Part shown: piece by piece, positions 1-55,513 of the stretch
Position numbering within the stretch: the first letter of the stretch is position 1
Layout: every line of letters starts with the position of its first letter
Position numbers and translations under genes: made by a program
Notes under the pieces: model-generated
The model's database searches: none
Told to the model about the DNA's origin: nothing
The model's input: only the letters and a program-made list of their open reading frames with translations
Assembly (NCBI GenBank): GCA_030704615.1
Contig: CM060731.1
Coordinates: 33,914,001-33,978,000, forward strand
Source: Takakia lepidozioides
Taxonomy: Eukaryota > Plantae > Bryophyta
Length of the DNA: 64,000 nt
Reading direction: 5' to 3'

Positions 1-284
1 CGGTGAGTCTTGGCCCGCTCACCACGGCCCCTATGGACCGTGATGAGTCCCAAGACTCCCCACGACTCCCACCACGAGGTCTCCGCCCCCATGGTGAGTC
101 CTATGCCACCCCCACCGCAACCCGGTGTGCGGGGCTCCACCTAGTGAGCGCCTCCGCTTCCCTGAGTGCCTTGGGCACTCAAGGGTGCTTCAACCCCCCA
201 TACCTATCGCTGCCGCTGCCCCCACCACAGGGGCAGCCCCTCATGTGTCCCGACCCCCTGCCCTCAAGGCAAAGGGCCGCGACA
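1..284 (-). repeat. 3' LTR (partial)
   Basis: Matches 3636-3964 apart from a 45-bp indel and a few small differences. Ends ...GGGCCGCGACA. A purine-rich tract (minus strand) adjoins at about 285-300. Confidence 0.93.
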
Positions 285-1190
285 CACACCCCTACCAACA
301 GGGAGTCGATGTCCTCATCGACTTGTCCATTTTGTAGAAACAAACATCCAAGTTTTGGCGTCCCACATCAAGGAGTTTGTTTCCGCACCATGGCGTCCCA
401 TGGCAAAGAACCAAACCCCACACTTGACTCTACTCTCCACTAGCTAGTTCGGCCGACTTCCTCCAAGTCCCGGCCAAGGGTGGAGCCTCTCCAGCTCCAC
501 CCAGTGCACTCTTCTTGGCCTACTTCAAGGCCAAGGAACGATCCTCCCCGAGGATCGAATCGCCTTACTGCAACAACATTGCTTGCGATCGCTCATGATG
601 CCGCTTTTGGCATCACCTTGAGCAAGGGTTCACCTGGAACCCTCTTTGACTAGGAAGATAACCTTGAACCAACCGTGCGCCCCAATCACTATAATTGGGT
701 CCGCCTTGGAATGCTGGCCTGAGGTACGGGAACACGCCGAAGCCGCACTACGACTTCGTCCCGAGGCTACACGATTATAGTACGTGAACGGAAGCACGTA
801 GCTTCCGCGTTAGCCCGCACTACAAGGCAACCCCCTCGGTAGCGCAGTTATAGTACGCGCACGCGCCAGGTGCGCACTAGCACGTGAACTCCCAAAGAAG
901 TCGCAAGTTTCCTTGCCGCTTGGATGGGGGTCACCCGATTTCGGCACTACGCAAACACACGATTAACCCAATTTACCTCTCCCACTTTTATAAGCTAGCA
1001 TGCATTCTACACACTAGCCAACCATACCATGCATCACCATTCCAAACAAAATAGGACGCACAACATTTGGAACCCATTTCCTTTATAACAAATTTTTGTA
1101 CAATACAAGTTTTTGTAATCGGATTCCTAAGCTAGCTAAGCCGGGCTAAGCATGCATTTCCTCCCCCACGCTCCAAGGTTGATGTCCCCA

Positions 1191-2956
1191 TCAATGTTTC
1201 TTCCGCTTTTGAGGTTGCCCTTCGAAAGCTGCAACCGCCTCGGATGCGTTTCCCATTTCTGAGGCACGCACCCAAGATGCCTCCACATGATGATAGCCCT
1301 TCCATTTGACGAGATACTCAGTTTCTTGGTTCTTGAACCTCCTTGACTTAAGTATTGCCTCCACCTCGTACTCAGGTTCATTTTCATGATCCAATAGCAT
1401 AGGTGGCGGACGCAACACTTGATGTCGATTCGGACGCGCTTCATCTTTGAAGTAAGGCTTCAAAAGGGAGACATGGAATACTGGGTGCACCTTGCTGTTT
1501 GCCGGCAGCTCCAATTCATACACATCCTCATTCATAACCTTCCGAATGCGAAAGGGTCCCGCACACGGAGGTACAAACTTCGGACTCACTTCCGGAGGTA
1601 GTCGGAAATTCTTGATGTTCAACCAGACCTCTATGCCTGCCTCAAACTTCACTTCCCTCCGCTTCCGATTTGCCTGCCTTTCATACCGTTTCCTGGCTTT
1701 GGCAATGTTGTACTTTGCGAGCTTCAACAAACGCTCGCGTTCTTCCAGTACCGCCGCAACTGCCGGTTCCTCAACGTCCTGGGCGGCCCAACTTGTCGGC
1801 ACCAGAGGTGCTTTTCCATAGACCAGCACGAAAGGGGAAACTCCCGTTGCAGAGTGTTCTGTGTTATTATAACAGAACTCTACCGCGTCTAAGTGTTCCA
1901 TCCAGTCTGATTGGTCTGCCGACACGTAATTCCGCAAGAATTGCTTCACTACGGAATTCACTCTTTCCGTTTGGCCGTCTGTCGTAGGTCGGAAGGCGGT
2001 GCTCATCTTCAGCCTCGTCCCCATCTTCTTCCAAAGTGTCCTCCAAAATTTACTCGTAAACTTTGGATCGCGATCCGAGACAATATCCTTCGGGACTCCA
2101 TGATGCTTTAAGACGTGGGCGAAGTAAAGTCGCCCTGTCTCCTGCGCCGTTGCCGTCTCCTTGGTGGGGATGAAATGGCCCATTTTACTGAACCTATCCA
2201 CCACCACCATGATTGCATCAAATCCTTTTGATAGCGGCATAGCAGTCATGAAATCCATCGAGACGCTTTCCCAAGTCCCCTCTGGAATCGGCAAGGGTTG
2301 TAACAGCCCCGCTTGCTTTTTTGTACTCGCTCCGGTTTTGTTGGCATGTGGTGCATGTCTTGACATACTCCTCTGCCTCCTCCCTCAGTTTGGGCCAGAA
2401 ATACTCTTTCTTCAAGAGTGCCGCAGTGCGCTTGGCTCCGTTGTGGCCCGCAAGCGGGCTATCATGGCATTCTCTCAAGAGGCTATCTCTGATCCCTCCC
2501 TTCGGCACGTAGAGACGTTTTTGCTTATACCGGAGCAGTCCATTTTGCAAGTGGAACTACGATTTAACCCCCATTCTCAAGTCCTGCATCACGGACTTTG
2601 CCAGCTCATCCTTCCGGCAAGCCTTCCGGATCTTCCTTTGGAGCGCCGTCTCGCCCTTGTACACCAACAAGAGCTGCTGCTTTCTACTTAAAGCATCGGC
2701 CACCACATTGTCCCGTCCCGGTTTGTACTGGATATCCACATCGAACACCGCCAAAGTATCTTGCCACCTAAGTTGTTTTGGGGACAACTTGGGCTGCGTG
2801 GCAAAATACTTCACCGTGACATTGTCCGTGAACACCTTCACTGGGTTGGAACCAACATAGTGGCGCCAAAGCTCAAGGCAATGCACCACCGCCTTCATCT
2901 CTTTTTCGTGCGTCGGCCACCGTCGCTCCACTTCATTCAGTTTCTTACTTTCGTAC
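1191..2956 (-). pseudogene. pol 3' half: RNase H end, integrase (HHCC, rve) and chromodomain, with a stop and frameshifts
   Basis: YESKKLNE.ERRWPTHEKE; YKPGRDNVVADALSR; ECHDSPLAGH..CTTCQ; SMDF..VVVDRFSK..IVSDRD..TDGQTER; EYEVEAIL..YLVKWKGY..SW. Split over three ORFs. Confidence 0.93.
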
Positions 2957-3225
2957 TTCCCAAAAGGCTGCCGGCATGGGAGGCATCTCTTGGTTTGTCA
3001 GAGCTCTCAAGGATTCCTCGGGCTCCGACTCCTCAGATTCCTCCCGCTCTTGAGCGGCCTCGTTTTCAGAAACATTCATCGCTTCCTCAAACGGCCGCCT
3101 CGGTGACACGTCGCCCCCATCGGGCTCACCAGGATCATCATCTTTTGGGCCGTTCCGCTTTCGCTTCAGCTTGCCCGACCCCATGATGAGGCCAATCCCA
3201 AGGACGATCACGTACTGAACTCTAA

Positions 3226-3237
3226 GCTCTGATACCA
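3226..3237 (-). promoter_or_regulatory. Primer-binding site for initiator tRNA-Met
   Basis: Minus strand TGGTATCAGAGC, the canonical plant tRNA-iMet PBS. Confidence 0.93.
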
Positions 3238-3239
3238 AG

Positions 3240-3964
3240 TGTCGCGCACCTCACTTCGATAAGCTCCCCTTCAAGTCATAGTTACTCGCTTTGATGCGCG
3301 CGCCTGACTCCCAACCTGGCCGTCCGGGCCAACTTGGAGCTTCGGCTGCTCACCGGGACATAACGGTCCCCTTCACTTCCCTCTCGACCCTCCACCTATT
3401 TGGGACTAGGAGAATTCCCTTTGGTAGATGGCAGTCCGGAACAACTCCCCACTCTTTGGTCGCTTTCCGGCTCGCTCGCTTACTCACTAGTTTTTGGTCA
3501 CCAACGGGCTTGCACCGTTCTCGGGGTTACTACTCCCTATATATACTTCTGTAGCTGTCCGTGGGGGTTTCACAACCAGCCATGCCATTTTATGGCGAAC
3601 CACCACGAAGACCCTCGATTCCCGGTGGTGAGTCGCGGTGAGTCTTGGCCCGCTCACCACGGCCCCTATGGACCGTGATGAGTCCCAAGACTCCCCACGA
3701 CTCCCACCACGAGGTCTCCGCCCCCATGGTGAGTCCTATGCCACCCCCACTAAGTCCCACTAAGCTACCACCACCCATTGTGGAGCCACCCCCACCGCAA
3801 CCCGGTGTGCGGGGCTCCACCTAGTGAGCGCCTCCGCTTCCCTGAGTGCCTTGGGCACTCAAGGGTGCTTCAACCCCCCATACCTATCGCTGCCGCTGCC
3901 CCCACCACAGGGGCAGCCCCTCATGTGTCCCATCCCCCTGCCCTCAAGGCAAAGGGCCGCGACA
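3240..3964 (-). repeat. 5' LTR (725 bp)
   Basis: TG...CA with 7-bp inverted termini; the PBS follows 2 nt later on the minus strand. Confidence 0.95.
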
Positions 3965-4720
3965 ATGTGGGCTGGGCGGTTTTCTGACCGGCACCTCTTT
4001 GCCTACGAGGAGGACACATCCGTCTAGGGATCCCATCTAGAAGGGCTGCAACGGAATGTGAAGGCTCCCATCGAAGCCAAGGACTCCTCGGATTCGTCGG
4101 AGTCGGAGGAAGAGACAGTGGACATTGATGCCGAGGAGAACCCGCAATACGAGTGAGTGCAAACATTGTAAGTTTGCAAAGTCTTCTGGGTGATTTTTTG
4201 TCAAACGCATTTGCGGACTGTGGTTCTCATTGGTCTCGTTGGTGATTGTTATGTGCAGGATTCCAGGATCCGGGTCGAAACATGTAGGGCCTACACTTCC
4301 TGCCAGGAAGAATGTCCCGTTCTTTGCGAGGGCCGATTTCATGACGAGCCCGGTGAAGGACTACTCCCTTCCTAGTTATGCAGCTAAACTCGCAAATACA
4401 GCGATTAGACGATGTGAGAATCCCAGTAAAGTAGAGCAGATTTTGGAGAGGGCTAGGGAGGACAGAAGGATAAGGAAAGAGTTGGCAACACAGGTAGACG
4501 GGTGCGAAAGTTCATATGTGATTCAGCGGATGAGAGCGATGCAGACAGGGAGGACGACGAGCCAACGGAGGTGAGATGGTCGGTTCCGCAAGGTGAAGAT
4601 GGGATTTTCGAAAGCCTGGCCAACGAGCAGTCCGCTGGAGATGAGAAAGGCAACGACGGGGTGGAGGCGGAGCAGGACAGTCAAGGACAGGACGACGATA
4701 GTGATGATTTTCAAGATTAA
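3965..4720 (+). pseudogene. 3' remnant of an unknown gene with acidic C-terminus, interrupted by the LTR element
   Basis: Acidic frame (SSDSSESEEETVDID), a GTGAGT...GTGCAG intron at about 4153-4258, ORF 4230-4574, then a frameshift to a D/E-rich tail ending TAA at 4720. Confidence 0.4.
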
Positions 4721-4857
4721 TAGAATTTTCATGAACTCTCTGTACATTTAAATTCTATTCCAAAGTATATAAAGGAAATTCTCCCCGTCCTTCATGTCCC
4801 CTCTCCCATTTGCCTCTCAACGACAACATCGTCCAAACCTGGTCCCTCCCAAAATCT

Positions 4858-5730
4858 GAAATGCGGCACCGCATTTCCAAAACCGGGGCAAGAACAATTT
4901 TCCGTTTCATGGTTTGGACATCAGAAACTGTTTCCGACACGACAGTTTTGCCGATTGCCAGCTCCTTCCATGGAGGTAAATGGAAATGCAGAGGTCGAAC
5001 ATGGAAATGCGGTGCCACATTTACCTTTTGGAGATGGACATTTTCCCAACTGCAGACCCATCGACGTTCTTGGGCTCCCCATTCCATGATGCTAGACGGG
5101 AATGCGGCACCGCATTCCATTGTCCAATAAGAAATTTCGATGACGTACATGGAAATGCGGCGCCGCATTTCCAAAACGGACATCGGTGTTTGCCCAATTC
5201 CAGACCCTTTGACGGAAATGCGGCACCGCATTCCATCGTCCTATAAAAACTTACATTGTCCTATAAAAACTTTCGATTGCCCAACATGAAAATGCGGTGC
5301 TGCATTTCGAAAACAGACATTGTTGTTTGTCCAATTCCAGACCCGTGTGGGCATTCCGTCTTGATGGACGGAAATGCGGCACCGCATTCCATTATCTGAT
5401 TCGATATTTTGATGACAGACATGGAAATGCGGTGCCGCATTTCCAGAACTTCCATCGTTGTTTGTCCAATTCCACACCCTTCGACGGAAATGCGGCACCG
5501 CATTCCATTGTGCTCTCCGGAAATGTTGTGCCGCATTTCATTGTCCGGTACGAAATTTCGATGACGGACATGGAAATGCGGTGCCACATTTCAAGTATGG
5601 ACATGGACAAGCATTAGCGACTGGACATGCTTGGACAGTTCAAGGTCCAATATGGAAATGCGGCGCCGCATTTCAAATTCGAAGTATGGTAATGCCATGT
5701 CAGGAAATGAAATGTTGTACAGCATTTCCG
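4858..5730. repeat. Array of about 13 palindromic 21-22 bp repeats (consensus GGAAATGCGGYRCCGCATTTCC) with two alternating linker types
   Basis: Copies start at about 4858, 5003, 5098, 5151, 5214, 5288, 5370, 5423, 5486, 5519, 5572, 5654 and 5709. Linkers recur, giving a higher-order unit of about 116 bp. Confidence 0.9.
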
Positions 5731-6082
5731 GTACGATGACAACGGAGGAAAGGGAGCTGCCAAAAATCGCTGCATGGAGAAAAATGAATTGTGTTGCCGA
5801 ATTTCCGAGCTTCGGCGTGTACATGTTTCCTACAACTCATACATGGATTTTCTTCACCTCAGGACTCTGATATCGCTGACTCTGGTATAGTCATATGGAC
5901 AGACACATTGTACAAATGAGACCTCAAATTGTAAACAGTGGGCCAATTACGGAAGTTCTTGAACACGATGAAACACAAGCACACAGAAGTGAGGTACGAT
6001 GGGTTGTTTTAATGATCGAACACGGTGTCTCACATTTAGCAACTCCAGACAAATCTAAGCCCTTCCTCCTTCTACATGGGCG

Positions 6083-6661
6083 TCACCAAGTCGACGGAAC
6101 TTCGATAGCCCTCAAAACAAGCTCATTACTGATGCGGCACCTCGAGGTAAACTGCAATGCGGTCGATCTGGTGCCCTTGGTGGAGCTGACGACAATGTCA
6201 TGCCCATCAATGATACCACCATCATACATTGACAAGGTCACTGTGGGCCTCCTGTGCCCGTGCGATTCGTCTTCGCAACTCAACCGAATGTCTCCATACA
6301 CTGGAAAAGCGGAGTGAACTCCACGACTATAGTTTTCCCCGGTGCCGTCCTCCCTGGTCCACTGGCAGCAGTTCCAGCGCCAAAGTGAGGCCGTGCGTGA
6401 TCTGTCCGGCATCCCATTCCACCTTGGTATATCGAGGTCAACAATTTTCAGGACCCAAGGACCGCATTGACCCTCGCCCTCACCTCGCTCAAAGCGGTAA
6501 TAGCCCTCCAGATACTCCATTGCGCGCAAAGACTCCCGCTTGATTCCAGAAGCGTCTGTGAAAACAGAGAGCCAGACAATGATGTCTCCTGATTCTGGTT
6601 TGAACATAGCATAATCGTGGCCATGATAAGGGCAGTCAGCAGGATTTCGGCAACACGACAT
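6083..6661 (-). CDS. Unknown protein (192 aa), paralog A of a divergent pair
   Basis: Open frame from ATG at 6661 (MSCCRNPADCPY). Colinear amino-acid similarity to 7218-7849, e.g. WNCCQWT, YGDIR, ELVLRA.EVP. Confidence 0.75.
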   Translation of the reverse strand: MSCCRNPADCPYHGHDYAMFKPESGDIIVWLSVFTDASGIKRESLRAMEYLEGYYRFERGEGEGQCGPWVLKIVDLDIPRWNGMPDRSRTASLWRWNCCQWTREDGTGENYSRGVHSAFPVYGDIRLSCEDESHGHRRPTVTLSMYDGGIIDGHDIVVSSTKGTRSTALQFTSRCRISNELVLRAIEVPSTW

Positions 6662-6918
6662 CCCTGAAAAAGAGTAGCGAAGTACGCTCAATGATAGCAA
6701 CTCCCGGATGGAGGAGGCAGCAGCGTGGTGGCTGGAAGAAATTCAAGCAAACGCTGCAATTCCTCACAAACACTCCAAGGCACATTTAAATTCCCCCCGA
6801 CAGGAACCTGCACGGATGAAGATTGGCTCATCCATGAATGTAGCCGTTTCAGTTTCCTTCCCTGCCATGCAAACTATGGGCAGTAAGTGCCGGGTGGGCC
6901 TATAGCCACTCGAGACGA

Positions 6919-6981
6919 CGAAGTCCATCCCCCCTTCAATGTAAATGCGGCGCCGAATTTCCATCCGGGGGATGGACTTCG
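6919..6981. promoter_or_regulatory. Nested palindrome in the shared intergenic region: 15-bp perfect IR enclosing a copy of the array motif
   Basis: CGAAGTCCATCCCCC (6919-6933) and GGGGGATGGACTTCG (6967-6981). Inside is GTAAATGCGGCGCCGAATTTCC (6941-6962), 20/22 to the array palindrome. Regulatory role is inferred. Confidence 0.6.
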
Positions 6982-7217
6982 GTGGCAGATTTCAAACTAT
7001 ACCCCCTGGATGAGAAAGACGTATCGGTTCATCCACCGCTGGCGTGATGAACACGTTACACGATGATTGGTGGGTACTTGTGACCCAGATGCTCCATTTA
7101 TTGGAGCCCGCACTGCTCTTCCGCTTCTCATCATTTCGAAAATCTAAGGGCTTCGTTGCTGTCCGCAAGGTCATTGTCATCGGCATCAAAGACGTCCTCA
7201 GGTCCTCCTTTGCAAGG

Positions 7218-7849
7218 ATGTCGTGCTTCCGGAACCGGGACGACTGCCCTTATGGAGGCATCGATTATGCAATGTATTCGGCCACATTGGGAGACATCGT
7301 TATCTGGTACACAGAAATGAATATGTCTCTTCTTCCACAGTTACTGGTGCAAAATGAAAAATTATTATAATTTTTTATTAAGATTACACAGAAGATATTG
7401 GTTCGAATGTGGAAACATTGTCCGCTTTTGAGTATCTCCCAGGCCAGTACGCCTTCGAGCGGGGTGACGATCTTGGTCTGAGGAGTCCGTGGCTCCTGCG
7501 CATCCTTGATTCCGATTTTCCCAGCTACGACGGGCACCCATGCAGAAGAATGCGCACTGCTATGCTGTTGCGGTGGAACTGCTGCCAGTGGACGTGGGTG
7601 GACTCCATCGGAGAGACTTATACTCCTGAAGGAGTGCGCTCATCTTCTCCATTGTATGGGGACATTCGCATTGGTGTGGAGGACGAAAACGTGAAGCTTT
7701 CCATATTCGATGGTGATATGATTGAAGGGCAGGACATTGTGGTGAACATCAGCAGGGGCGGTACAACGGCTGCAATCCAGTTTACCTGGAGGAGCCCGAT
7801 GACTCATGAGCTTGTTCTCAGAGCAGTCGAAGTCCCATTAACAACGTGA
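7218..7849 (+). pseudogene. Unknown protein, paralog B; split by a 77-bp AT-rich insert (possible intron or footprint)
   Basis: MSCFRNRDDCPY..GDIVIW at 7218-7307 and YTEDIGSNVETLSAFEY...EVPLTT* at 7385-7849. Removing the 77 nt between the two TACACAGAA copies restores the frame. Confidence 0.7.
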
Positions 7850-8924
7850 CTTGTATTCAGAAGGCACAGGGCTAAAGATTTGTTTGCACAATCAGCACAG
7901 TAGACGTGCTTCAAATGCAATTCATGTGGATCAATAAAAACCCCATTGTGTCTGATCTTTTTGTTCTATTCTATATCCATCGTTCCCAGAATGCATCATT
8001 CCTCATTTCGTTTGCGATTGGGAGTGTGGGTGGATTTTGCAAGTGGTTGGTAGGCTGAAATGGGCCCCCATTGTCCAGAGCAGTAGCACCCTACCATTCG
8101 TGAAACATTGCCTTTCAATATGTAATTCTAAAAAACATTGCCGAACCTCCTTCATCGGGAGGTCCTTCTCCCCCTATGACCGTGACACCCTAAACCCTAT
8201 TCCCGTGGACACTCATTTCCGGAAAATAGTCCTGCTCATGTTTTTTTCGACACTTACGACTCTGCTCATGGCTCATGGCTCATGAAATAGCAGCCCCCGT
8301 GAAAAAGCAAGTATAAAGCAAATTCCCAGAGACATGTTTACCAATGATATATGTCTCGCTGGTAGTCGTTGAGAAACAAGGCTCTTAAGCTTTGCCCACA
8401 AACTCAACATCAAATGAGTGTTGAATTGGGGGGTATGACACACAACCCTGCAATCCAGCAACTTCTCACGATTTAGAAAAGACCTTTCAAAAATGAAGAA
8501 AATGAAGAGATTGAAAGGGAACTATGTGGTTCAGGGCTGGATTAAATGGGGCAGCTTGGCATCAGATGGGCCTTGGGTTGCTGCCTACAGTGAAACAGAG
8601 AATATGGCATGCTACTGGAGGCATATCAATCGCATATCAATCCTCCTTGTCCACAATTGATAGACCTCTAGAGCTGGCACCAGCAACAATCCATATTTTT
8701 CATCTAGGCCATCATCATTGCCAAAGTAAATTTGCCCCTACCTCTCTTGACATAAGATGCCTCTATTCTCACTGTGGAATTACAATGGGAGAACCATGCA
8801 CTGGTATGAATAGACTCTTATCCTCGACAAATGGGGAGAGAGGAGAAGAGAATGGAGGTACCGCCGCCCTCAGCAGTTGGTGGTTTTTTGGGGAAATGAC
8901 ATAGTGAATGCCTATAATTACTTG

Positions 8925-9190
8925 TAGGGCCTCCCTCCTATGACAACCATGTTGGGCATATCCTGCGATCATTGCATTCCAAGACACCACATCTTGTTCG
9001 GCCATATCATCAAACACTCCCTTGTCATCCTTGATGCTACCACATTCAAACTACATGTCCACCCAGGTAGAGTTTAGAACAAATACCTCTCGTACTATTC
9101 CCATTTTGAGGCTGTCCAATTTCAGGGCTACCAAGCTCGCACATTCATTGCAAATGCAACCAATTGTGACCTTGTCCGGCTTCGGCATCA
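8925..9190 (-). pseudogene. PLS-class PPR gene fragment
   Basis: KPDKVT..CASL...[28 protein letters not shown], with a stop. Confidence 0.85.
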
Positions 9191-9789
9191 CTAAAAGAAC
9201 TAGTTGTATAGTCAAATACCAATGTCATGAAGGGGGGGGATGTATCAAATTGTACACTTGAAGACTGCAAACAAGGACGACGTTTACAAGTCAATTTGAA
9301 GTTTGCAAACTGCATGACTCAATGAAGTATGCTACCTACTACTTGTTAGAGGGCTGCTTGGGACTTAGACACTTTTACGGGTTCTGTGGGGTACCCTTAA
9401 TTTTTGCGCAGACTGAGACCAACAAGAGCCTTAGGGGTGGCAGGCGCAGACTTTAGGGGGGTTAGACAGCCAGTCTTAGCCCGACACAGCTTCGCACAAC
9501 CAGTCACAGCTCGGCACAGCTTGACACAGCCTGTCACAGTACATAGGGAACAGTTATCATTGACAGGGAATGATTGTGTGGGAACGACATCTGCAGAGGG
9601 AACGTGTTACTTCAGGGGTGACGGTTAGTTAGTTAGGTGGTTAGAACAGCTTGCGGGTAGATTAGGCAGGGCGGCAACAGGAAGGGGGCTTCTGGAGGAT
9701 CACTTCTTGAGGAGGAGACGTAACGGAGAGCGGAAACAGTGAAGGGGAGATGATGACTTGATTGAGGCTTAATTCATGCAAGCTGTAGA

Positions 9790-10950
9790 ATTATACAGGA
9801 GAGCCAGCCACAGGAGTAGACAACCAATTACCTGATGCGAGTTTATTTGCAGTGGAGGTGAAGGGAAGTGCAGATGACTGGTTGCAGATACTACTTTACT
9901 CATGGTCAGTGCCCACCTAGTTATGGGAAGAAGCAGAGGAAGAGAATCGCTATCAAGGCTCTACCTTATACTATGGTAGGGAGTCATTTTGGAGAAGAGA
10001 CTACCAGTAGAAAGATACTACTTGCAGGTTACTGGTGGCCTACTTTGTTCAAGGCTGTACACAAGTATTGTAAGAGTTGTGATGAGTGTCAGAGGCTAGG
10101 ACCATTGCAGAGATCTGGGAAGATGGCTTTGCATCCTACGATGCCTACTGAATCATTTCAGAAATGGGGACTAGACTTTGTTGGACCAATTAACCCACCA
10201 GCCAAGAATACACAGAACAAGTATATAATCACAGCCACTGATTATACTACAAAGTGGGTGGAAGCTAAAGCTCTGAGGGACAACACAGCTAAGTCCACAG
10301 CAAGGTTCCTGTATGAGAACATACTTATACGATTTGGCTGTACCCTGGAATTTATCAATGACCAGGGAAGTCACTTCATTAATGAGACCATAGAACTCTT
10401 GACTAAAGAGTTCATGATTGTGCATAGGAAGAGTACAACTTATTACCCACAGGGTAATGGGCAAGCAGAGGCTACCAACAAAATACTATGTACTATCTTG
10501 GCTAAGATAGTCAATGCAAACAGAACAGATTGGGATACAAAGCTGCTGACAGCTTTGTGGTCATACAGGACTTCATATAAAGTCACCACTAAGTATACAC
10601 CATTCCAATTAGTTTATGGAATGGAAGCTTTACTTCTAGTGGAATTCCTGTTACATGAGAATTGAATGGGGAAGTAGAATGGAATTGGAAGATTCAATTA
10701 AGGTCAGAATTCAGATGAAGAGGAAGGATCAGTTTGATGAAGGTAAATTAAAGACTTTTAAGACGGGAGATTTGGTTTTGTGGTTGCAAAAGAAGGGGAA
10801 GATTAAGGCTTCTAAGCTTAAATCACCATGGAAAGGACCTTATGTCATACAGAAGATGTATGATAACAACACCGCCATGTTACAAACCATTAACAAAGAG
10901 ATGTTGGGAAGAGTCAATGCAAATAAGTTGAAGGGATACAGTGTTATCCA
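9790..10950 (+). pseudogene. Gypsy integrase (HHCC, rve, GPY)
   Basis: SHFG..GYWWPTLF..CDECQR; FQKWGLDFVGP; ATDYTTKWVEA; INDQGSHF; YYPQGNGQAE; WKGPY. Frameshift at about 10660. Confidence 0.92.
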
Positions 10951-11090: not shown

Positions 11091-11200
11091 GTTATCACAG
11101 CCCACCACAACATCACACAGCCTATCACAGCCCACCACAATGCCACACAGTTTATCACAGCCCACCACAGTTTGACACAGCCTGTCACAGCCCAACACAA
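11091..11200 (+). repeat. 30-bp minisatellite, about 3.5 copies
   Basis: Unit approximately TATCACAGCCCACCACAA-N-CACACAGCC, repeated every 30 bp. Confidence 0.85.
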
Positions 11201-11772
11201 CCCACGCGGGTTACACAGTCCATAGGGTCAGTGACAGCTGGACGTGGGTTAACGTCCGGAAAGTGGCCGGCGGAAGAAATGACAGCTTGGAAGGCAAACG
11301 CGAAGAACTGCCACGCGGACAGGGAAAGACGGAGGAAGGTCTAGAAACAAACACGTGGTCGCCAGGGCGAAGCACACCGCAGTGCATATATTGCAAAAGC
11401 GGGTGTCATCATGCAAGAAGACAAATTGGGCCGTCAAAGTACCTACCCGGTACATCAACCCAAACTATTTGTGGGCCCATTAATGCATTCAGGGCAAGGG
11501 TAATGGAACCCTTTATGAGTATATAAAAGGGGGATCTTTGCTACATGTGCTATCCTAGTGGACATTCCAGGGGGGAAAGTCCACTGAGGGGAGTTAAATT
11601 AAGAAGTTACCCAAGGAGGCAACAGCCAATCACGAGCGAGAATTACATGAAGATGGTTTCCTCCAAGAAACAAGAGCAAGAAATTAGCAGGGTTATGAGC
11701 GCGAGAGTCGGGGTGGCTCCGAATAACCAACGTCTTGGCAGGAGAGGCAATCAAAGCTATAGCTTTGTAGCT

Positions 11773-15090: not shown

Positions 15091-15256
15091 GGCCAATTCC
15101 AAGGAGGGAGGGAGAGAGAGGGAGAGAGAGGGAGAGAGAGAGAGTGAGAGGGAGACATCAGGGGCAACAAATAAAAGAAAAGAAGGTGGGGGGAGTGACC
15201 CCCCCCCCCCTGTTTTTTTTTTTTTCTTTGTTGCCCCCTCTCTTGGGGAGACAAAA

Positions 15257-16000
15257 GGGACAGATCCTACCTCTGTCGGGGGCTGACGTTGGTAGTAAGA
15301 CTTACCTTCACATATAGAATAATCTAGGTTTTCCATATATCCTCTACAAATCCCTTCACACAAGCATCAATCTGTTGTATGTGAATTGCCCAAAAACTAG
15401 GCCTCAGAAGGGGCTGGGCTTTTGGCTCAGCCTCGACACTTTCAAAGTTAGTAAACAGAGGTACATGCACAATTCCCTTGATAGATTTGAAGAGAGCGTC
15501 TCTTTGGTGAGAGAACCCCGGACAGTGTATCAGAAAATGAATAATGTCTTCAGGTTGCCCACACAACGGGCAATTGCACTCTCCCTTTCCTCTTTGCTTC
15601 TGTTTGCTTATCAAATGAAGGCTTCCCGCCCCGAGTTTAAATTTCAGTTTAGTGTCGAAAGTGGGTAGACCCTTTAGGTCATCCAAGACGTCCTCCCCCA
15701 TGTCATAGACTGGAAACAAGTTCAGGGAAGTTTTTTGCCTAACTTCATTTTCACAATCTCATGGCAACAGACATGGTTGGACACTAGAGCCTCTAAGTCA
15801 TATTTATCCAGCAGGGTGAAGATTTGCGGTTCGAGTCCTTGAGAATCTCTTCTACTGTCTTCTAGTGCCAGTGTTTGACAGGTCGGTGGGCGGTCCTGTT
15901 TCCAAGATATAGAGTCGATTAACTTAGGATATCTGGTGTTGGACATATGCTGCAGCTGACTCCACCATCTGACCTTAAACTCATCTCGTCGGGAGCTTAA
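15257..16000 (-). mobile_element. 5'-truncated LINE copy (same family as 42735-43762)
   Basis: KLKFKLGAGSL..CPLCGQPEDIIHFLIHCP; high DNA identity to about 42920-43680. Confidence 0.88.
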
Positions 16001-16280: not shown

Positions 16281-16760
16281 TGTAAGTAGCCCAAGACATG
16301 CACCATGCAAGGCTCCTTGGGTAGGTAAGAACAGCGGCGCCCTGCTACAGATTCAAGGTATGTTTATACAAGCACCTTGAAGGACCAGCCTACAATTTAT
16401 CAGATTTCAAACATGCAACCAAGTAATCTTCTTGGGCATGACAAAACATATTGCAACTTCACTCTTTGCCATTTGTAAGTACCCCAAGACATGCATTATG
16501 CAAAGCTCCTTGGGTAGGTAAGAACAGCCTGTTCTACTACAGATTTAGGATATGTTCATACAGGTACCTTGAAGGACCAGCCTGCAATTAATCAGATTTC
16601 AAGCATGTAACCAAGTAAACTTCTTGGGCACGACAAAACATATTGCAGCTTCACTCTTTGCCATTTGTAAGTATCCCAAGACATGCAGCATGCAAGGCCT
16701 CTTGGGTAGGTAAGAACAGCCTGCCATACTATAGATTCAAGACATGTATACACGACGAGA
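16281..16760. repeat. Tandem repeat, unit about 192 bp, about 2.5 copies
   Basis: TGTAAGTA.CCCAAGACATGCA..GGGTAGGTAAGAACAGC at 16281, 16474 and 16666. Confidence 0.9.
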
Positions 16761-28910: not shown

Positions 28911-30465
28911 GGCTTGGCTGTCAGTACCAACAAAAGCACAAGAATATGGGCTATGCACTGCACCTTCATGTTTTCATATGTACCGCCATCCTCCAATGGC
29001 TTTAGTGTGGATGGATCACGGTGAAACCTTTTGAAACCATCCATATCTTAAACCCTTCCCATTTTGACTACCATGTTTATCTCATAAGTGGTTTTGATGG
29101 GGGCCGTATCAAATCTGAGTACAGGTGGTGAAGCAGTTCAGGATTCCACATCTGTTTGAACTTCCTATCAGACCCAAAGTAAGTACTCATTGTGGTTAGC
29201 TCATTTTCAAGGGTATACTGTTTTTTCTCAATGCGGATCACTTTTATGATTGAATAATGTAAGAGTTTGACAGATTCTTTGAAATTGTGTGGCAGTAATC
29301 CACTAATATTCCCAAATAATCAAATCTGAAGGATGAATGTCTATATCTGGTCTCTGTCATTGAAGGATCAACATGTATTATGGCTACACAATCATGTAGC
29401 AGCAATCAGGACTAAGGGCCATCAGCCACCAGGAATTGCCAAGAAAGAAAGGCCCTTCAGGTTTAGATGAAAGTGAATCAAGGACCCAACTCTTGTTTGG
29501 AGAGATAGTGGGATAAATTCAAGAGTCACCAATTTGAAATTCCCTCCAGCCCTTGACAAAGGTAGAAGGAATCAATGTCACCATAGTCAAGAAACCGAAA
29601 TCACTACTAGGCCGTTCAATATGATTTGTCTATTGCTCATGTGTAGAGACTCTCTAACTTTTCCAGTGAATGGTTGCACTGGTGTCCGACTCATCATTTT
29701 GTCATATTGCCATACAATAATGATCCATGAATAATGAGATGCAGATGCAGAAGGGAACCGTGCAATCTGGACATCGAGAGAAACATTTATCCCTTTTAAC
29801 TGCCTCATGTGAGTTGTATATGCGCTTGAGTGTCCTCTGCCCTGCCTTGGCATTGGAGGTTATCTGAAGGTTTGAAGTGCCCATGCATTCATTCAGTAAG
29901 TTTGCAACGGAAGAGCAAGATCGTTGAGTGCAAGAATGTGGTCAAATTCACTGACACACATGTACAAACTATTACATATGTGGGTCTATATTTTACGTAG
30001 AAATTTATATATCTAAGTACAATGCACATACGTGCACTGAACATAAGGGCCATGCTGTCTATTGGGCAGGTTTTTCCAGCAAATCAAGAGAACTTCCACA
30101 AAAGTACAGACAAGGCATACTGGAAGGTAGTGGCACAACTGCTTCCCAATGAACTGTCAAGATTTCTATAGGTGAAGGGTCGCGGCAAAGATCTAAGGAC
30201 AGAAAAATTGGTGTGGAGGCCAACAAGGGTCCCAAGCTTGAAAAGCCTATGATTTAGGCCGCATGCGGCATGTCCTTCTGAAGCTGAAGCAAAATACAGG
30301 GTGGATCTGCTTGCCAATTGTTTGACGTGTGACAAGGGAGATGTATCCACTTTGTTTCTAGGTGTACATGTGCTAAGGGAAATAGGGTGAATAAGGTAGC
30401 ACAAAATGGTGAAAGCGTGCAAGGGGTCTTCTCCCTTAGTGTGGGGGAAGAGAGTTCATCTTGTC

Positions 30466-31800
30466 ATGACACCTGCCCCGAGATTCAAACGAAAATGTAA
30501 GGAGCGTGGCAAGTGGACAGAAGAATCAATGAAAGAAGCTCTCAAAAGCATTCAGTCAGGGCAAATGGGTAGGAAACTTGGCCCACCCACTGCTTTGAGA
30601 CCAGATGAACTGTTGAAATGGTGTGAGGATATGCAAGTTGTAGCCTATTGTGTATCTTTGCAGATGTTAAAAAGCAAAGTCAAGCAAATTTGTGAAGGTC
30701 GTTCCACACCTTTCAAAGCTGGAATGCCCGGGAATAAGTGGTGGAGGTTTTTCCAATTGAGGTTGCGGACGCCACAAGGACTCGATGCTAAGAGAGCAAA
30801 GAATGTGAGTCCAGAGCGATGTAGTCCTTCTACCAGTTCATTGGTGAAACATATGCCAGGTCCAAGTTCTTACCATCTCATGTATGGAATGTCGACGAAA
30901 CAGGACTTTCAGCAAGCATAAAGATTGGTAGAGCCAAAGTCATTGCAAGGAAAGGAAGCAAGGAAGTTTTGACTAGGAGTTCTGGTCGAGAATGGCTGAC
31001 AGTTGTAGTTTGCATCAACGCAAGTGGACAACGGATACCATCTCAATACATTTTTATCTGGAAATTCAATTCGTGAGAACTATATCATCAATTGCGTTGC
31101 AGGGGCAAGAATGAGTGTATAGCCAAGTGGGTGGATGACTTGTTCATTGAGTGGTTAAAGCACTTTCAGTAGTCCGTGCCTGGAGGAGTAAGTCCTGACA
31201 ACCCACAAATTTTTCTCCTGTTGGATGGCTCTGGAAGCCATCTCACAGAGGAGGCTGTGAAAATTACGCGAGATATGGGTTTACAAGTGGCCCTACTACC
31301 CCCTCACACTTCACATAGGCTTCAACCATTGGATGTGCCAGTCTTTCGAGCATTCAAGCTGAGGTTCGGCCAGCTGCGGGAAGAGATGATTGCAGCAAAC
31401 CCAAAGTGGTTGAATGGCAATGGCAATAAGGTGGCATTGGCAACTTTGGCATCTCAGGCCCTCGAGGCAGCTTGCACTATGGAGAACGTTAAAGCAGGGT
31501 TCCGCAAAACAGGGATATTTCCATTAGATCCACATAGTCTCATATGGGCCCAAGTACAATATTTGACTCCAATGACCTTGACAGGGGTTCAACCTCAAGT
31601 TCAGGGCATCGTGAAGACTCGGGGTCTGACAAAGAATCAACCCATGAGAGCCCTTTTAATGACAACATTGAAAATCCACCAGAGTCTCTCTTGGACATGA
31701 TGGTCTTTAGTGAAGAAGAAGAGTTATCACAACGTGTGTCACAGCTTAGCATTGATGAGCCTAGGCCGACACTTGTGGATCTTGTTACATTACCAAGCCT
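30466..31800 (+). pseudogene. pogo/Tigger-type (CENP-B HTH plus DDE_1) transposase, degenerate
   Basis: RGKWTEESMKEAL (psq-like HTH); PGNKWWRFF; WNVDETG; LLLDGSGSH; LPPHTSHRLQPLDV; AGFRKTGIFP. Stops and frameshifts present. Confidence 0.92.
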
Positions 31801-31904
31801 CCCACCACCTCGTATAGAGAAGATCGAGGGCAGACTATTGCATCGCAAGCGTGCATCACTGGCTCGAAGTATGAGGAGTACTCTGATTGGGCATTTTTTA
31901 TAGA

Positions 31905-33065
31905 AACCGATCTCATATCTGCGCATACTTTTGCATCATTTGTTGCATACTGGCAACACTTGGACATTGCATGCCCAAAACAGCTACCCACAAATGGAGA
32001 ATCCAACCCCAAACACGCACATGAGACCACCGAATTCAAAGCATTGGTCAAAGTGACCAAGTTACCTCCCTCATCTTTGACGTAAGCAATAATGCGAGTA
32101 TTGAGGCCATACTTCACAAGAAGATTGTTGACTTGATGTGCCATGGCAGCCCCAGATGTGTCAGGTGTCTCAAACATGCCAAGACTCACATGACATTGCT
32201 CCCACTGTTCATTAATAAAGTGCGCTATGATGACAAAAGTGTCAGTTCCCCCTCTTACATCCACAAATCAAAACTCACGGAGCAAGTAGCACAACTTTGA
32301 AGAGATGGGGACATGTAGCGCTCTTTCGTCTTCTCCTCATTCACAAATGTCCGTCGAGAAGGGAAAACAATCCGAGGATTTTGCCTCAACACCATCATTC
32401 TTAGCCAATGGGATTCTACCAAAGACAGTGGAACCAACTCCTTTGCAATGAATAAGACTAAATCCTCATTGAACTGCTTCTGTTGATCATCATTTTGGTT
32501 GTATGGAGTGGAGCTCCTAAAAAAAGAAGCTATGTTTCCAGGAGTGGGGCCGGGCCTCTTTTTGGCTGGCCTACGGGCCTTCTCAGGTCCTTCATTTTCC
32601 CTCTCAATCCACCTACGCAAAACAATGTCATGTTCTTGATCCACATGTTTTCGAAGGGCAGAGATACCATTGGTTTTATTATAGGTCACAATGCCCTTCT
32701 TGCTTGCAGGAGTGACACCAACAGGATGACATAGAACACATCTCATTTGTTGTGGATTTGTTATGTCCACTGGAGCAGAGTCTTTTGTTGCATAGAATGC
32801 CCATGTCGAAGCAGTGCGATTGTGAGGCTTCCAAAAATCCCGTTGTTTGTCAAGTACTGGGAGCTGCGCCTCCACATCCAACACCGTGTGTGATGGCGAA
32901 ACTGTGGAAGATGACATTGCAGCCGAGGCTTGATGAGCTGATGTAAATGAGGCTTCATGATGAGCATCCTCCGCAACATGGCACTCCACCAAAGCTCTCT
33001 CATTATCAACATTGATGTCAGGAACAACTTCCCTTTCTAGTTCATCGAAAATATTGGGCTCCATG
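31905..33065 (-). pseudogene. hAT-like transposase N-terminal part with BED-type zinc finger, truncated
   Basis: TWAFY..MRCVLCH..GISALRKHVDQEH; SFDLWM; YVKDEGGNL; SCFGH (CxxH). Confidence 0.85.
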
Positions 33066-34170
33066 ACATAAAAAGCTTGTGGAACAACTCCTGTGTAAAA
33101 ACAATGCAAATAAAGAATCCAAAAGGCATTTAATAATTGTGCACAACTCATATATTTACAACTAAAAATGTAAACAACTAAAAAAATAAAGCTCAATGAA
33201 AGGGAGTTACAAGCGGGTAATGGTGGCTGGTTGGTAGGTCCCTCCCTACTTTGGGCTCCCTCCCTCCCATGCAGAATCTGCTATAACAGAAGCCAAAGGG
33301 GCTATCTCATCAACCCCCAATTGTATCAAGAATTAAAAAAAATTAAAGAAAGGGAAGATACTTACCAGTGATGATCAATGTGGGCTGGTTGGCGGGCCCC
33401 TCTTTGCTTGTGCTCCCTCCAATGTAAAATCTACCATAGTGGAGCAAGGGCTATCAGCCCCTTGGTATATCATCAAAGAAAACAGGAAAAAAAAAAGAAA
33501 AAAGAAGAAGAATGATGATCAATGATTACCATGGACCAAGGGGCTTGGTTGCAGGTGGGCCCTCCTTACTCGTCCTCCTTACCTCTTGTACCACATGCCA
33601 TAGCAGAAAAGGAGGAAGCTGATTAGCTTCATGGTGAACTAAAGCTAAAAACAGTAAAATAACCCAAAGTGGTGGATGCTTACCAACGTCACAAACTCTA
33701 CTTGCTACAGCATTGATATCCACTCGATTGCTTAGATCATTCTCTTTTGAAAAGCCCTCTTCAGTAGTTGAACAGCACTTGGAGACGACTGGATGACTAA
33801 ATCACTGACAACCAAGACCAGGTTGACTTTCAAGTGAAGACAGCCAGAATGCAGTGCCACGTGGAGTAGCCAGAAACTATGAACGAGAGAGCCCCTGAAG
33901 GAGAGGATGGAAGAGACGGGGGGATGGCTGCTCACATACCTCCTCTCGCCAGTCAACATTGTTCAAGATTCCCTGACACACAGCGAAAAGAGGAACACCC
34001 TTGTACAAAACCTGCATAAGCACCTTATTCAGCTCCACCTGCAGCTATCATACCATCCCACAATAGAACTTCTTGGAAATGAACAGTGCGGAGACCCCTC
34101 TAATTTGGTGCAAATCAATTTTGCCAATACAATAACCCACAGAATGGTGAACAAAAGAAAAGGGGGTTAC

Positions 34171-37510: not shown

Positions 37511-37861
37511 GGAAGAATTGATGGGTAGGACAAGAGATGGTGGAGCTAGTAGCTGTTGAGTAAGTGTGCCCGGAGGTATATTGTTTATAGGTTGGTTGGG
37601 GGAGCTTATGGGGATACCCTAGTGGCCAAATTAGGGAGATATGGTGTAAGAATGATAGTGATATATTGTAAAGATGTGGGAAATGGGGGTCCACATAGGT
37701 GGTGTAAAGGGGAAGTGAGGGGGTGGGGTATATGTGTATAATTTGGTTGGATGAAGTCCATTAATCCTGGTTTGTATGGCGTCCATGGGTAGGATTAGGG
37801 CTCTATTATTTTTAAATATGGATGGAAATGGGCAAGTCCAGCTAGGAGCGGGATGGGAGGT

Positions 37862-39280
37862 CACTACAAAAGATCCTGGTTTTTTTTACAGTAAGGGTAG
37901 TTGATACCTGGCTTTTTTTACACCTAATTTGACACCCATGTAAAATGTCGATGATATAGATTGAGCTCACTACAAGAGATCATTGTTTTTTTTACAGTAA
38001 AGATAGTTGACACCTGATTTTTTTTACACCTAATTTGACACCCATGTAAAATGTCGATGGTGTAGATTGAGCCAGTGTAAGAAAAGCCGTTTTGTGTAAA
38101 CTAGTCTACACCAAGCTCACACCTTCTGTGGTCAACGGTCATTGACCGAGAAGGTGTCGAACAATGTACAAGGCTTATGTCACACTTGTCTAAGAATCAA
38201 CCGTATAGTGTAAGTTATTCCACATAATGGGGTTCAACTATATGATGTGGCATGCTAACTATACATGGTGTGAGAAATGTTACATGGATTATCTCACACT
38301 AGAGTGGATTATGCCACGCTGGACATGTTGATTAAGGGACTCATGTCAACTGTATGACTATGCGTGTTGACCAAGGCTTGTCTTACACCAGTGTAGAGTA
38401 AGTCACACTATCAGGACACGTAGATATGTGAGAATGACATGTGACAGTGGATGATTTAGTTGGATGAATGTTATAGGAATTATGTCATTCATATGTGGGA
38501 TGAATTCACCTGCAAGGGACTTGGGTTTTTTCGAGATAAAAACGGAGAAGAATGAAGAAGTCGACTGCCCATTGTCTACTCCGACTCATATCTGTGCTGG
38601 GCAAGAGACATGGGAGATGTAAGGCAAGAGACATGCCTAGTCTAGCACCTTTCGGACAATATTGTAGAGAGGTCGTGGGCCTCGTGAAGTATCTCGAATG
38701 TGAGAAATCATGCTCCATGACTGTGACGATATATATGACTATGACTAGATGTGTCACACTCTTTATATTTCAAAGTTTGTTGTGGTTATATACAATCAAA
38801 CCACTTATGTTGTACATGTATGTGTAATAGGTGTGTTTGGTTAGTGTATAGTGAATTAGTGATGCTATAATGAAGAGATCTTAGGTTCAAATGTGTATTG
38901 TCTAGTAATGTGTGGGATGGTATGCGGTCAAGCGTTAACTGGGATGGGTCAACGGTCAACGCATATTTCAAATTTGAATTTTTGATCCGCCAAAATTTAA
39001 AATTTAAGATTTGAATTTTGAATTTTGAATTTCGCTACGATGTCAGATAAGCTGTCAAAAAATCCAGTCGAAATGGATGTGAGAAAAGTCGGTCAAAACG
39101 GGTGTAAAAAAAACCGTGTAAAAAAGGCCAGCCAGTATGGGCGCCACGGTGTAGTCGTGTGTAAGATGGTTTTTTCGACACGACCACCAGAACTCACAGG
39201 GTGGTGCAAATGACACGGTCTACCTAACACCCGAAGGGGGTGTGAGCGGTTGGCTTTTCTTAGAGCCCCAGGTGTAAGAT
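37862..39280. mobile_element. CACTA-type element left end (first ~106 bp duplicated) with TTACAC/GTGTAA subterminal repeats
   Basis: CACTACAAAAGATC at 37862 and CACTACAAGAGATC at 37968; many TTACACC/GGTGTAA motifs. No matching right TIR. Confidence 0.65.
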
Positions 39281-55260: not shown

Positions 55261-55513
55261 TAACCACTTTGAAATTCCAGCTGGCGTCCTTCTTTTCTTT
55301 TCTTTTCCCGGTTTCGAAGCGAACCAGACTACGACACACATGCATCCATCAAGTTTCCCTCGCATAATATTCCGCGATGTGATGGCAAAATAATAATGAT
55401 ATAATATTATGCGAGGGAAACTTGATGGATGCATGTGTGTCGTAGTCTGGTTCGCTTCGAAACCGGGAAAAGAAAAGAAAAGAAGGACGCCAGCTGGAAT
55501 TTCAAAGTGGTTA
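55261..55513. repeat. Perfect 111-bp inverted repeat with 31-nt loop, upstream of the BELL gene
   Basis: 55261-55371 is the exact reverse complement of 55403-55513. Confidence 0.97.

Follow-up and report, generated by a model that had tools for sequence, protein, structure and literature searches.

A palindrome array and a head-to-head gene pair inside a multi-copy mobile element of Takakia lepidozioides

Layout of the locus

The window, a stretch of 64,000 nt from Takakia lepidozioides contig CM060731.1 (GCA_030704615.1, positions 33,914,001–33,978,000, forward strand), contains the following features, given in window coordinates:

3242–3964, minus strand: 5′ LTR of a chromodomain Ty3/gypsy retrotransposon, which truncates the left side of the element described here
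3965–4152, plus strand: exon from the 3′ part of the element's large gene (candidate transposase or regulator), with donor GTGAGT at 4153
4259–4720, plus strand: last exon of the large gene, encoding an acidic tail, with its acceptor at 4257–4258
4857–5806, no strand: array of 14 units (12 good, two decayed) of a 22-bp palindrome, delimited by motif matching
6083–6661, minus strand: gene A, an intact 192-aa orphan ORF of pI 5.9 (ATG at 6661)
6919–6981, no strand: central inverted repeat of 63 bp around one palindrome copy (6941–6962), between the two start codons
7218–7849, plus strand: gene B, a paralog of gene A (ATG at 7218; ORF and BLASTP)
8234–8298, no strand: right end of the element, GCTCATG subterminal repeats followed by GAAATAGCAG and CCCCC (8294–8298)

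The left part of the element is cut off by the gypsy retrotransposon, and its remainder lies beyond the window edge. Copies of the LTR at 1–284 and 3636–3964 are 99–100% alike in two blocks and flank the retrotransposon's integrase and chromodomain (1194–2384), and contigs of runs X5 and X6 continue left of 3963 with different sequence. These and all other comparisons with further copies draw on public contigs from four runs (X5, X6 and X8 among them); a further run, X7, yielded no matching contig. None of the listed runs is recorded as RNA; that X8 might be is a guess, its contigs covering LTR and intergenic DNA as well, and X8 was left out of account in judging expression.

Only the last ~220 codons of the large gene are visible, and in the window copy they are damaged. 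The exon at 3965–4152 has a premature stop (4025–4027) that the other copies lack, and its four listed differences from them comprise three synonymous changes and one in the stop codon; the last exon is frameshifted near 4489, where other copies have seven additional bases, and five of its eight listed differences are synonymous and three conservative. Neither exon has a family match or homologue in Pfam, PHROGs, NCBIfam or the PDB sequences, the hits of DUF6609 (E 0.016) and phrog_34525 (E 0.041) to the tail both being weak; a comparison of the tail exon with longer proteins gave 78 candidates, none passing, and the ESM Atlas gave no usable match. Within these last ~220 codons there is no match to a DDE/D transposase, nor to the Replitron Rep (PF21859) or second domain (PF21860), and such Replitron domains would lie upstream.

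Parts of one mobile element

The array, the gene pair and the central site all belong to the interior of a single mobile element that exists in multiple copies: in public contigs the sequence is multi-copy, has a sharp end with varied flanks, and has an empty target allele. In X5, single contigs and joints run across the gene tail, the array, gene A, the centre, gene B and the end at depths of 107–160, against 3.5–5.8 in the flank, contig depth here and below not being copy number. Contigs of X6 that carry 34–84 differences span the tail and first array unit (3963–4888), the centre and start of gene B (6800–7249), and the end of gene B with the terminus (7630–8298); X6 depth is low in the array, 2–9 compared with 61–63 at the ends. 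This linkage, together with the joints in other copies' contigs, bears out the proposal of a preliminary description, made from this DNA alone, that the motif ties array and pair into one unit within a larger mobile element. In the contigs and libraries covered, we found neither the array without the genes in a known transposon, nor gene pairs lacking the motif, nor a known protein family with dN/dS near 1.

An orphan gene pair under purifying selection

Genes A and B are alike at 80 of 160 positions (BLASTP, E 2e-51), and every shared motif that the preliminary description listed is present. The two divergent genes of ~190 aa that it reported hold for gene A, but gene B is not a single ORF in the window copy, where a 68-bp A+T-rich insert (7313–7380) shifts the frame. 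Contigs of X5, X6 and X8 join 7312 directly to 7381 without the insert, and the fourth run has a similar joint, 7314 to 7384. We considered the insert as an intron and rejected it, since none of the four possible cuts gives GT–AG and DNA contigs lack it. Gene A is itself removed in two of the four runs by a deletion joining 5997 to 6770.

Both genes were under purifying selection, as had been suggested: over 181 codon pairs pN/pS is 0.57 (bootstrap 0.44–0.75), with corrected dN 0.36 and dS 0.82. The 3′ regions of the two genes score above all 300 shuffles in global alignment and not in local alignment (37 versus a maximum of 38.5).

The claim that A and B belong to no recognised family also stands, no homologue having appeared in any library searched. 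Gene A gave 33 candidates in a set of 5.8 billion proteins and an alignment used as query (A1) gave 508, none passing in either case, and the interest of the family lies partly in its having no detectable relative among 1.84 billion representatives (phmmer). There was no match for either gene in Pfam (E up to 0.1), PHROGs, NCBIfam or the PDB sequences, no usable ESM Atlas match for gene A, and no tblastn match in phage and plasmid records; a metagenome scan with gene A returned 57 stretches and a viral-contig scan three, with no relative among them. Gene A is predicted, with low confidence, to be all-beta, and the AlphaFold models of both proteins have a pLDDT of 36, at which the PDB and BFVD fold searches (no hit at E up to 0.001) are uninformative. 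Four loci were put forward as related and rejected, two (L001, L002) being single motif matches with no further similarity and two (L003, L004) seed-driven matches of gene B lacking support from gene A. Four DNA strings of the element did not occur in the literature searched, and no title or opening of an abstract there describes such an element.

A helically phased palindrome array

The preliminary description counted about 13 palindrome copies at 4858–5730; the array is confirmed and the count amended. Matching GGAAATGCGGYRCCGCATTTCC with up to three mismatches returns 13 sites in the 64-kb window, 12 of them at 4857–5675 and one at 6941–6962 (mean 0.00 in 100 shuffled windows), and two further, decayed units start at 5708 and 5785, which brings the array to 14. 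Its units mostly alternate in orientation, and it lies ~2.5 kb from the right end of the element.

Newly found here is a phasing of the units at ~10.5 bp, the best period in a scan of 5–30 bp being 10.52 bp (R = 0.79, 14 units). Tests confined to periods of 10.2–10.7 bp give p = 0.019 for eight distinct spacers and p = 0.003 for the seven that remain when the most decayed unit is left out, whereas a test that presupposes no period gives p = 0.29. The array has grown by duplication, and its spacers therefore do not count as independent observations.

That growth is visible in higher-order repeats of 116 and 272 bp and in unit numbers that differ among copies, as joints in other copies' contigs attest, and it invites a reading in which the array is a by-product of slippage or foldback, or a source of hairpin RNA, with no protein bound to it, and the central copy a scar of an inverted duplication that gave rise to A and B. 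The strong fold of the array (z = −4.7) and two miRNA-hairpin matches, far below the Rfam thresholds, would agree with this. However, the 22-mer has been kept while the spacers diverged, the spacers cluster at whole helical turns, and a copy at 1.1 kb distance still agrees with it at 20 of 22 positions despite a dS of 0.82 between A and B, and we therefore consider such an origin quite improbable.

A second motif, GGACA/TGTCC, is enriched ~12-fold in the spacers (13 counts); GGAC/GTCC is equally dense in the gene tail.

The central inverted repeat

The single copy outside the array (6941–6962) has two mismatches, as the preliminary description reported, but its placement next to the midpoint between the start codons (6939.5) needs correcting: as recognised here, the copy lies at the heart of an inverted repeat of 63 bp that is centred at 6950–6951. 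The arms (6919–6933 and 6967–6981) are perfect over 15 bp, other copies have one more G at 6966 in the right arm and are thereby more symmetrical, and the region 6900–7000 folds strongly (z = −5.8). While the arms are identical at 15 of 15 positions, the remaining upstream halves of A and B have no significant similarity. Such perfect arms can also come about neutrally, by template switching.

Dimers suit palindromic sites, and the position of this site on the symmetry axis of the gene pair raises the question of whether A and B themselves bind it, as homo- or heterodimers that would regulate their own expression at the central operator and coat the array, perhaps as a VANC-like anti-silencing factor of new fold. 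The purifying selection on both genes would be in keeping with such a role, as would conserved Cys, His and Trp residues that could bind zinc. Yet both proteins are acidic (gene A with 22 K+R versus 26 D+E; the C-terminal 154 aa of gene B with pI 4.5 and 13 K+R versus 23 D+E) and are therefore probably not palindrome binders; neither matches a DNA-binding family in Pfam, NCBIfam or the PDB, and the fold models are too poor to judge by. VANC-family proteins fall in Pfam DUF1985/DUF287, and no VANC-family match was found for A or B in Pfam (E up to 0.1) or for the large-gene tail at the Pfam cut-offs. We regard binding by A and B as unlikely.

A hairpin between divergent ORFs is also the layout of circular ssDNA viruses, and the locus might on that analogy be a DNA virus that has become endogenous, its origin being the hairpin between the divergent genes and its enhancer an array resembling baculovirus hr regions; the preliminary description had entertained an endogenous virus and an hr-like array. 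An all-beta protein of ~190 aa, if that low-confidence prediction holds, would fit a capsid-type fold. The viral searches, however, turned up nothing related to the proteins, to the palindrome or to the terminus: there was no match in PHROGs, phage records, viral contigs or BFVD, and one candidate was rejected. Moreover, A and B are paralogs rather than a Rep and a capsid gene, and the fixed end, variable flanks and empty site fit a transposon, so that a viral origin appears very improbable indeed.

The right end and its target

The GCTCATG subterminal repeats start at 8234, 8264, 8271 and 8278, and past them coverage collapses, the summed depth of X1 falling from 229,017 at 8290–8299 to 688 at 8310–8429 and that of X5 from 109 to 3.65 across the end. 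Beyond 8298/8299, 11 contigs in five rows, from three of the four runs, continue with differing flanks, and two contigs from two studies represent an empty site, matching from 8294. Another new observation is that the terminal CCCCC is present in both empty-site contigs as well (one locus, with the left end beyond the window), which is not predicted for a standard cut-and-paste element.

Ends of CACTA/En-Spm elements begin CACT(A/G), and PIF/Harbinger elements have a TWA target beside the end. Both are absent here: the common end reads GGGGGCTG from 8298, with 8299–8301 varying by flank, and none of the six flanks (five rows and the window) starts with TAA or TTA.

The shared CCCCC could instead reflect a non-DDE element that integrates at C-runs by microhomology, its enzyme being either a tyrosine recombinase, as in Cryptons or Starships, or an HUH enzyme, as in Replitrons; the array and hairpin would then serve as accessory recombination or replication sites. 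Positions that follow a C5 or C4 run make up only 0.24–0.5% of the window, and one loose-end row before 8264 begins with the inverse of 8285–8292 (30 letters only), as inverted arms would predict. A G-R-F-x7-Y spacing in the exon at 3965, which presumably recalls the last tyrosine-recombinase motif, is a lead only, that exon having no Pfam or PDB match. On the other hand, DDE elements typically combine a large gene containing introns with short subterminal repeats, and a G5-tipped inverted repeat accounts for the other flanks equally well. The shared CCCCC comes from one locus; that site is C-rich, and the differences between its two empty alleles leave room for slippage or an excision footprint. 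No significant hairpin forms at the right end (z = 0.07). We think this mode of integration improbable. A left end reading G5 plus a variable duplication would indicate a TIR/DDE element, and one reading C5 then CTGCTATTT a direct-repeat, microhomology element; were CCCCC a recombination core, it would represent a new integration mechanism for land-plant elements.

In Cryptons and Starships, short direct repeats mirror microhomology with the target (PMC13465315). Common ground with the present element would be cargo genes, a short terminal sequence that recurs in the empty target, and perhaps a short inverted arm. They are described there from fungi and animals, whereas this is a land plant with only the right end visible, and no recombinase appears in the part of the element inside the window. 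Replitrons, in the text consulted on them (PMC10288648), have short direct terminal repeats and possibly site-specific insertion and are abundant in non-seed plants; a probable non-seed-plant host, multiple copies and a possible target-aligned terminus would be common ground. Described Replitrons are, however, ~2–4 kb long with Rep as the only recognised domain, and that text reports no array or gene pair, whereas here at least 4.3 kb with three genes is visible, already more than their full length (PMC10288648). Of six motifs sought in the seven supplementary Replitron files, five were absent, and the remaining one, a 9-mer, occurred once in an unrelated context. It is doubtful that we are dealing with an undescribed land-plant cargo element that integrates in the Crypton/Starship manner by C-run microhomology and carries its own control circuit, a phased 22-bp operator array with a matching operator driving a new family of small all-beta proteins.

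A putative regulatory circuit

The reading that we prefer, at a probability of about one half, is that the 4.3 kb within the window form the right-hand part of a land-plant DNA element, multi-copy and polymorphic for insertion and most likely a DNA transposon, whose array probably serves as a docking site for a DNA-binding protein that acts as a dimer and is encoded by the element. By analogy with known transposon regulators, this protein likely binds the array and central sites and switches on the element's genes. The large upstream gene, of which 3965–4720 holds the tail, would encode this binder, either a transposase or an accessory regulator. With phasing at ~10.5 bp, dimers occupying the units would all face the same side of the helix and form a cooperative complex, which may, in the way of VANC and TnpA clusters, protect the activity of the element from silencing by the host. 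The central copy, in the middle of the shared upstream region, would couple the expression of A and B to the binder, and A and B themselves, perhaps products of an old inverted duplication centred on that site, would be accessory proteins of the element, with A dispensable.

Transposon regulators with binding arrays of their own are known mainly from Arabidopsis and maize, and the element described here offers a compact, testable case, probably from a non-seed plant, with a long palindromic site, an inner phased array and the same site between accessory genes. The 22-bp site and its binder could also serve as a specific chromatin-targeting tool.

A close likeness is to the VANDAL Mutator-like elements of Arabidopsis. 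There VANC21 binds to tandemly repeated clusters of motifs within non-coding stretches of the element that encodes it, and VANDALs are DNA transposons with extra genes whose family-specific motif is massed in inner, non-coding tandem repeats that gain and lose units between copies, as the array does here (PMC5735166). VANC motifs, however, are short (~9 bp) and in one orientation, while the 22-bp sites here are palindromic, mostly alternating and helically phased (PMC5735166), and the head-to-head paralog pair with its central site sets the present element apart from VANDAL. TnpA of En/Spm and the AtMu1 transposase likewise bind dense clusters of motifs and activate cognate copies (10.64898/2026.08.24.746577), much as our working model would have it. 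There the clusters are terminal or in inverted repeats, whereas this array lies ~2.5 kb inside (10.64898/2026.08.24.746577), a difference that, like that in motif form, runs counter to the model; from En/Spm the element differs further in its non-CACTA end and in a separate GCTCATG repeat at the terminus.

With regard to host silencing, the CpG observed/expected ratio is 0.8–1.1 inside the element and 0.3–0.5 outside, a contrast that the youth of the element explains as well as a loss of methylation.

Extent and copies of the element

The preliminary description had placed a palindrome array and a divergent gene pair inside a large mobile element or endogenous virus, and 3965–8298 does very probably belong to a mobile element, given a sharp right end, varied flanks and an empty site. 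Of ten public sequencing runs listed with matching sequence, contigs of four were aligned on 3700–9600 and of four on 8130–8429 (one of these without any match); one listed run is labelled plant metagenome, and the host was read as a land plant, probably a non-seed one. Across the right end, 8298, depth falls from 229,017 to 688 in run X1 and from 109 to 3.65 in X5, and beyond it eleven contigs in five rows carry different flanks. The target locus without the element is represented by two contigs from two studies, in which the window's right flank is joined to other sequence. On the left, a gypsy LTR extends up to 3964, whereas X5 and X6 contigs continue there with other sequence, so the remainder of the mobile element must be sought outside the window.

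In X5, depth was 131 over the tail of the upstream large gene, 127–134 over the array, 107 over gene A, 118 over the centre between the genes, 133 over gene B and 160 at the end, against 3.5–5.8 on the flank; although depth is no copy number, such a contrast suggests a family of tens of copies in which every part is about equally represented. Depth in X6 was uneven (61–63 at the ends, 19–30 over the gene pair, 2–9 over the array), and many copies therefore differ internally. Single X6 contigs with 34–84 differences from the window bridge the tail and the first array unit, the centre and the start of B, and the end of B and the terminus. The similar X5 depths and these diverged contigs bear out the claim that array, gene pair and central palindrome co-occur. 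CpG observed/expected is 0.8–1.1 across tail, array and genes and 0.3–0.5 outside the element; since the young gypsy copy has a similar value (0.88), the undepleted CpG says nothing about protection.

One X5 flank past 8298–8299 (one contig, depth 2.4) starts with a sequence closely matching the array palindrome; either the element inserted there into the array of a second copy, or the contig spans a junction of head-to-tail or circular copies. In X1 and X6 (two of four runs), a deletion from 5997 to 6770 removes all of A and keeps the centre and B.

Right end and mode of integration

The right end consists of GCTCATG repeats, then GAAATAGCAG, then CCCCC. A CACTA end and a TWA next to the end are the family features used in comparison; CACTA was not found at the right end, and TWA began none of six flanks. 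In both empty-site contigs the match to the window begins at 8294, which places the C5 in the target as well, and only 0.24–0.5% of window positions are preceded by such a C-run. A C5 common to end and target would be expected of an element integrating by microhomology, as Cryptons and Starships are described to do (PMC13465315), and perhaps Replitrons likewise (PMC10288648). However, the sharing comes from a single C-rich locus whose two empty alleles differ from each other, and we consider such integration doubtful. One loose-end row begins with the inverse of 8285–8292, which suggests possible short inverted arms, and ends before the deciding bases. A DDE element is tentatively favoured on prior grounds.

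The gene pair and its centre

6661 to 6083, minus strand: gene A, open frame, 192 aa
7218 to 7849, plus strand: gene B, paralog of A, split in the window copy

Two diverging paralogs of about 190 aa had been proposed; A is intact and B aligns to it (N-terminal piece 56% identity, C-terminal piece 80/160 identities), but B is not one frame here. In X5, X6 and X8 contigs, 7312 is followed directly by 7381, with a similar joint in X1, and none of four possible cuts checked gives the intervening 68 bp GT–AG ends; the segment is thus an insert of the window copy. With it removed, the distance from the conserved W to EYL in B would be the same as in A. With the two B pieces aligned separately, 98 residues are identical over 181 codon pairs, and pN of 0.286 and pS of 0.499 (ratio 0.57, bootstrap 0.44–0.75; corrected dN 0.36, dS 0.82) uphold the suggestion of purifying selection on both genes.

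Between the start codons lies a 63-bp inverted repeat (6919–6981), in which perfect 15-bp arms (6919–6933 and 6967–6981) flank one copy of the array palindrome; its fold z is −5.8, and one extra G in the right arm of other copies makes it more symmetric. Inverted similarity beyond the A and B frames is mostly eroded, the centre excepted: similarity of the 3′ regions is borderline, with a local score of 37 versus a shuffle maximum of 38.5, and that of the 5′ halves, centre excluded, was not significant. We read the pair as a probable old inverted duplication with a maintained axis, while neutral template switching is a possible source of the symmetric centre.

As the preliminary description held, A and B match no recognised family: no relative was found among 1.84 billion protein representatives, in a word-indexed protein set, in four family or structure libraries, in the ESM Atlas, or in phage, plasmid, viral, metagenome and prokaryote DNA. 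Non-seed plants are thinly represented in such databases, so both proteins are orphans within the searched collections only. Predicted models of both are all-beta and, at pLDDT 36, too poor for use. No description of the element was found in literature listings, nor any match to four diagnostic strings in the literature searched, and the family may already be catalogued in Repbase or Dfam. The arrangement reported earlier is real, and its protein family is an orphan in this sense.

The palindrome array

At up to three mismatches the 22-bp palindrome has 13 matches, 12 in 4857–5675 and one between the genes at 6941–6962, whereas 100 shuffles gave a mean of 0.00. With two decayed units, at 5708 and 5785, the array has 14 in all. 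Both the array of about 13 copies and the further intergenic copy reported earlier are therefore present. Successive spacings are 146, 95, 53, 63, 74, 82, 53, 63, 33, 53, 82, 54 and 77 bp, with a best period of 10.52 bp (R = 0.79; 5–30 bp scanned). For a period of 10.2–10.7, p = 0.019 (eight spacers, repeated ones collapsed), or 0.003 with the most decayed unit omitted (seven spacers); with the period not fixed beforehand, p = 0.29. The spacers diverge while the motif is retained, and unit orientation mostly alternates. Such phased, alternating units would fit proteins bound on one helix face; that the array is instead neutral we regard as improbable.

In the spacers (4879–5784) the commonest 5-mer is GGACA/TGTCC (13 counts, about 12-fold), and the arms of the central repeat contain ATGGAC/GTCCAT; this may be a second binding motif.

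The large gene and a proposed mechanism

The tail of the large gene (3965–4720) comprises two exons, bounded by GT and AG splice signals, and gave no useful match in protein, family or structure searches. Among the differences to other copies that were listed (40 of 419), 14 fall here: two intronic, eight synonymous, three conservative and one in a premature stop codon absent from other copies. Near 4489 the other copies are 7 bases longer. From the substitution pattern, the stop-free copies and the extra bases, we conclude that the large gene of the family codes for a long protein whose tail is acidic; the stop, the 7-base gap and the insert in B indicate that the window copy has decayed in both the large gene and B.

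We give a probability of about one half to the reading that the element is a DNA transposon whose large gene would encode a dimeric binder of the 22-mer, for which the phased array would be a high-density landing pad, the central copy coupling A and B to the same binder. A and B might themselves bind the palindrome, but their acidity (pI 5.9 for A, 4.5 for the C-terminal piece of B) points away from DNA binding, and we think this unlikely; that the element is a virus seems very remote. If the large gene does encode the binder, the arrangement would resemble that of VANC21, whose binding motifs are concentrated in tandem repeats within non-coding DNA of its element, VANDAL21 (PMC5735166), and those of TnpA and the AtMu1 transposase, both of which recognise motif clusters and switch on cognate copies (10.64898/2026.08.24.746577). 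The Takakia element differs from these in motif form, position and proteins, and is therefore not assigned to either system.

Remainder of the window

The window is eukaryotic and transposon-rich, with these further features:

about 1–3964: chromodomain gypsy element, LTR blocks 99–100% alike, young, nested in the large gene
8772–9224: broken PPR gene fragment immediately right of the insertion site, match at 8892–9050 below the Pfam cut-off
9862–10662: second integrase, of a gypsy-like element
near 31 kb, within 30400–33280, plus strand: pogo/Tc5-like DDE_1 fragment

Many X8 contigs are related to the PPR fragment. Adjoining the DDE_1 fragment are minus-strand frames, hAT-like by eye, with no Pfam match. 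Related 30-bp tandem repeats lie before (9466–9539) and inside (11093–11205) the second gypsy-like element, and other tandem repeats at 16281–16747 (period 192, 2.4 copies) and 37857–38072 (period 106, 2 copies). A dispersed repeat family (15254–16000, 42924–44105) has several window copies 75–85% identical, and 55261–55513 is a MITE-like, near-perfect foldback of 253 bp with about 91% self-complementarity.
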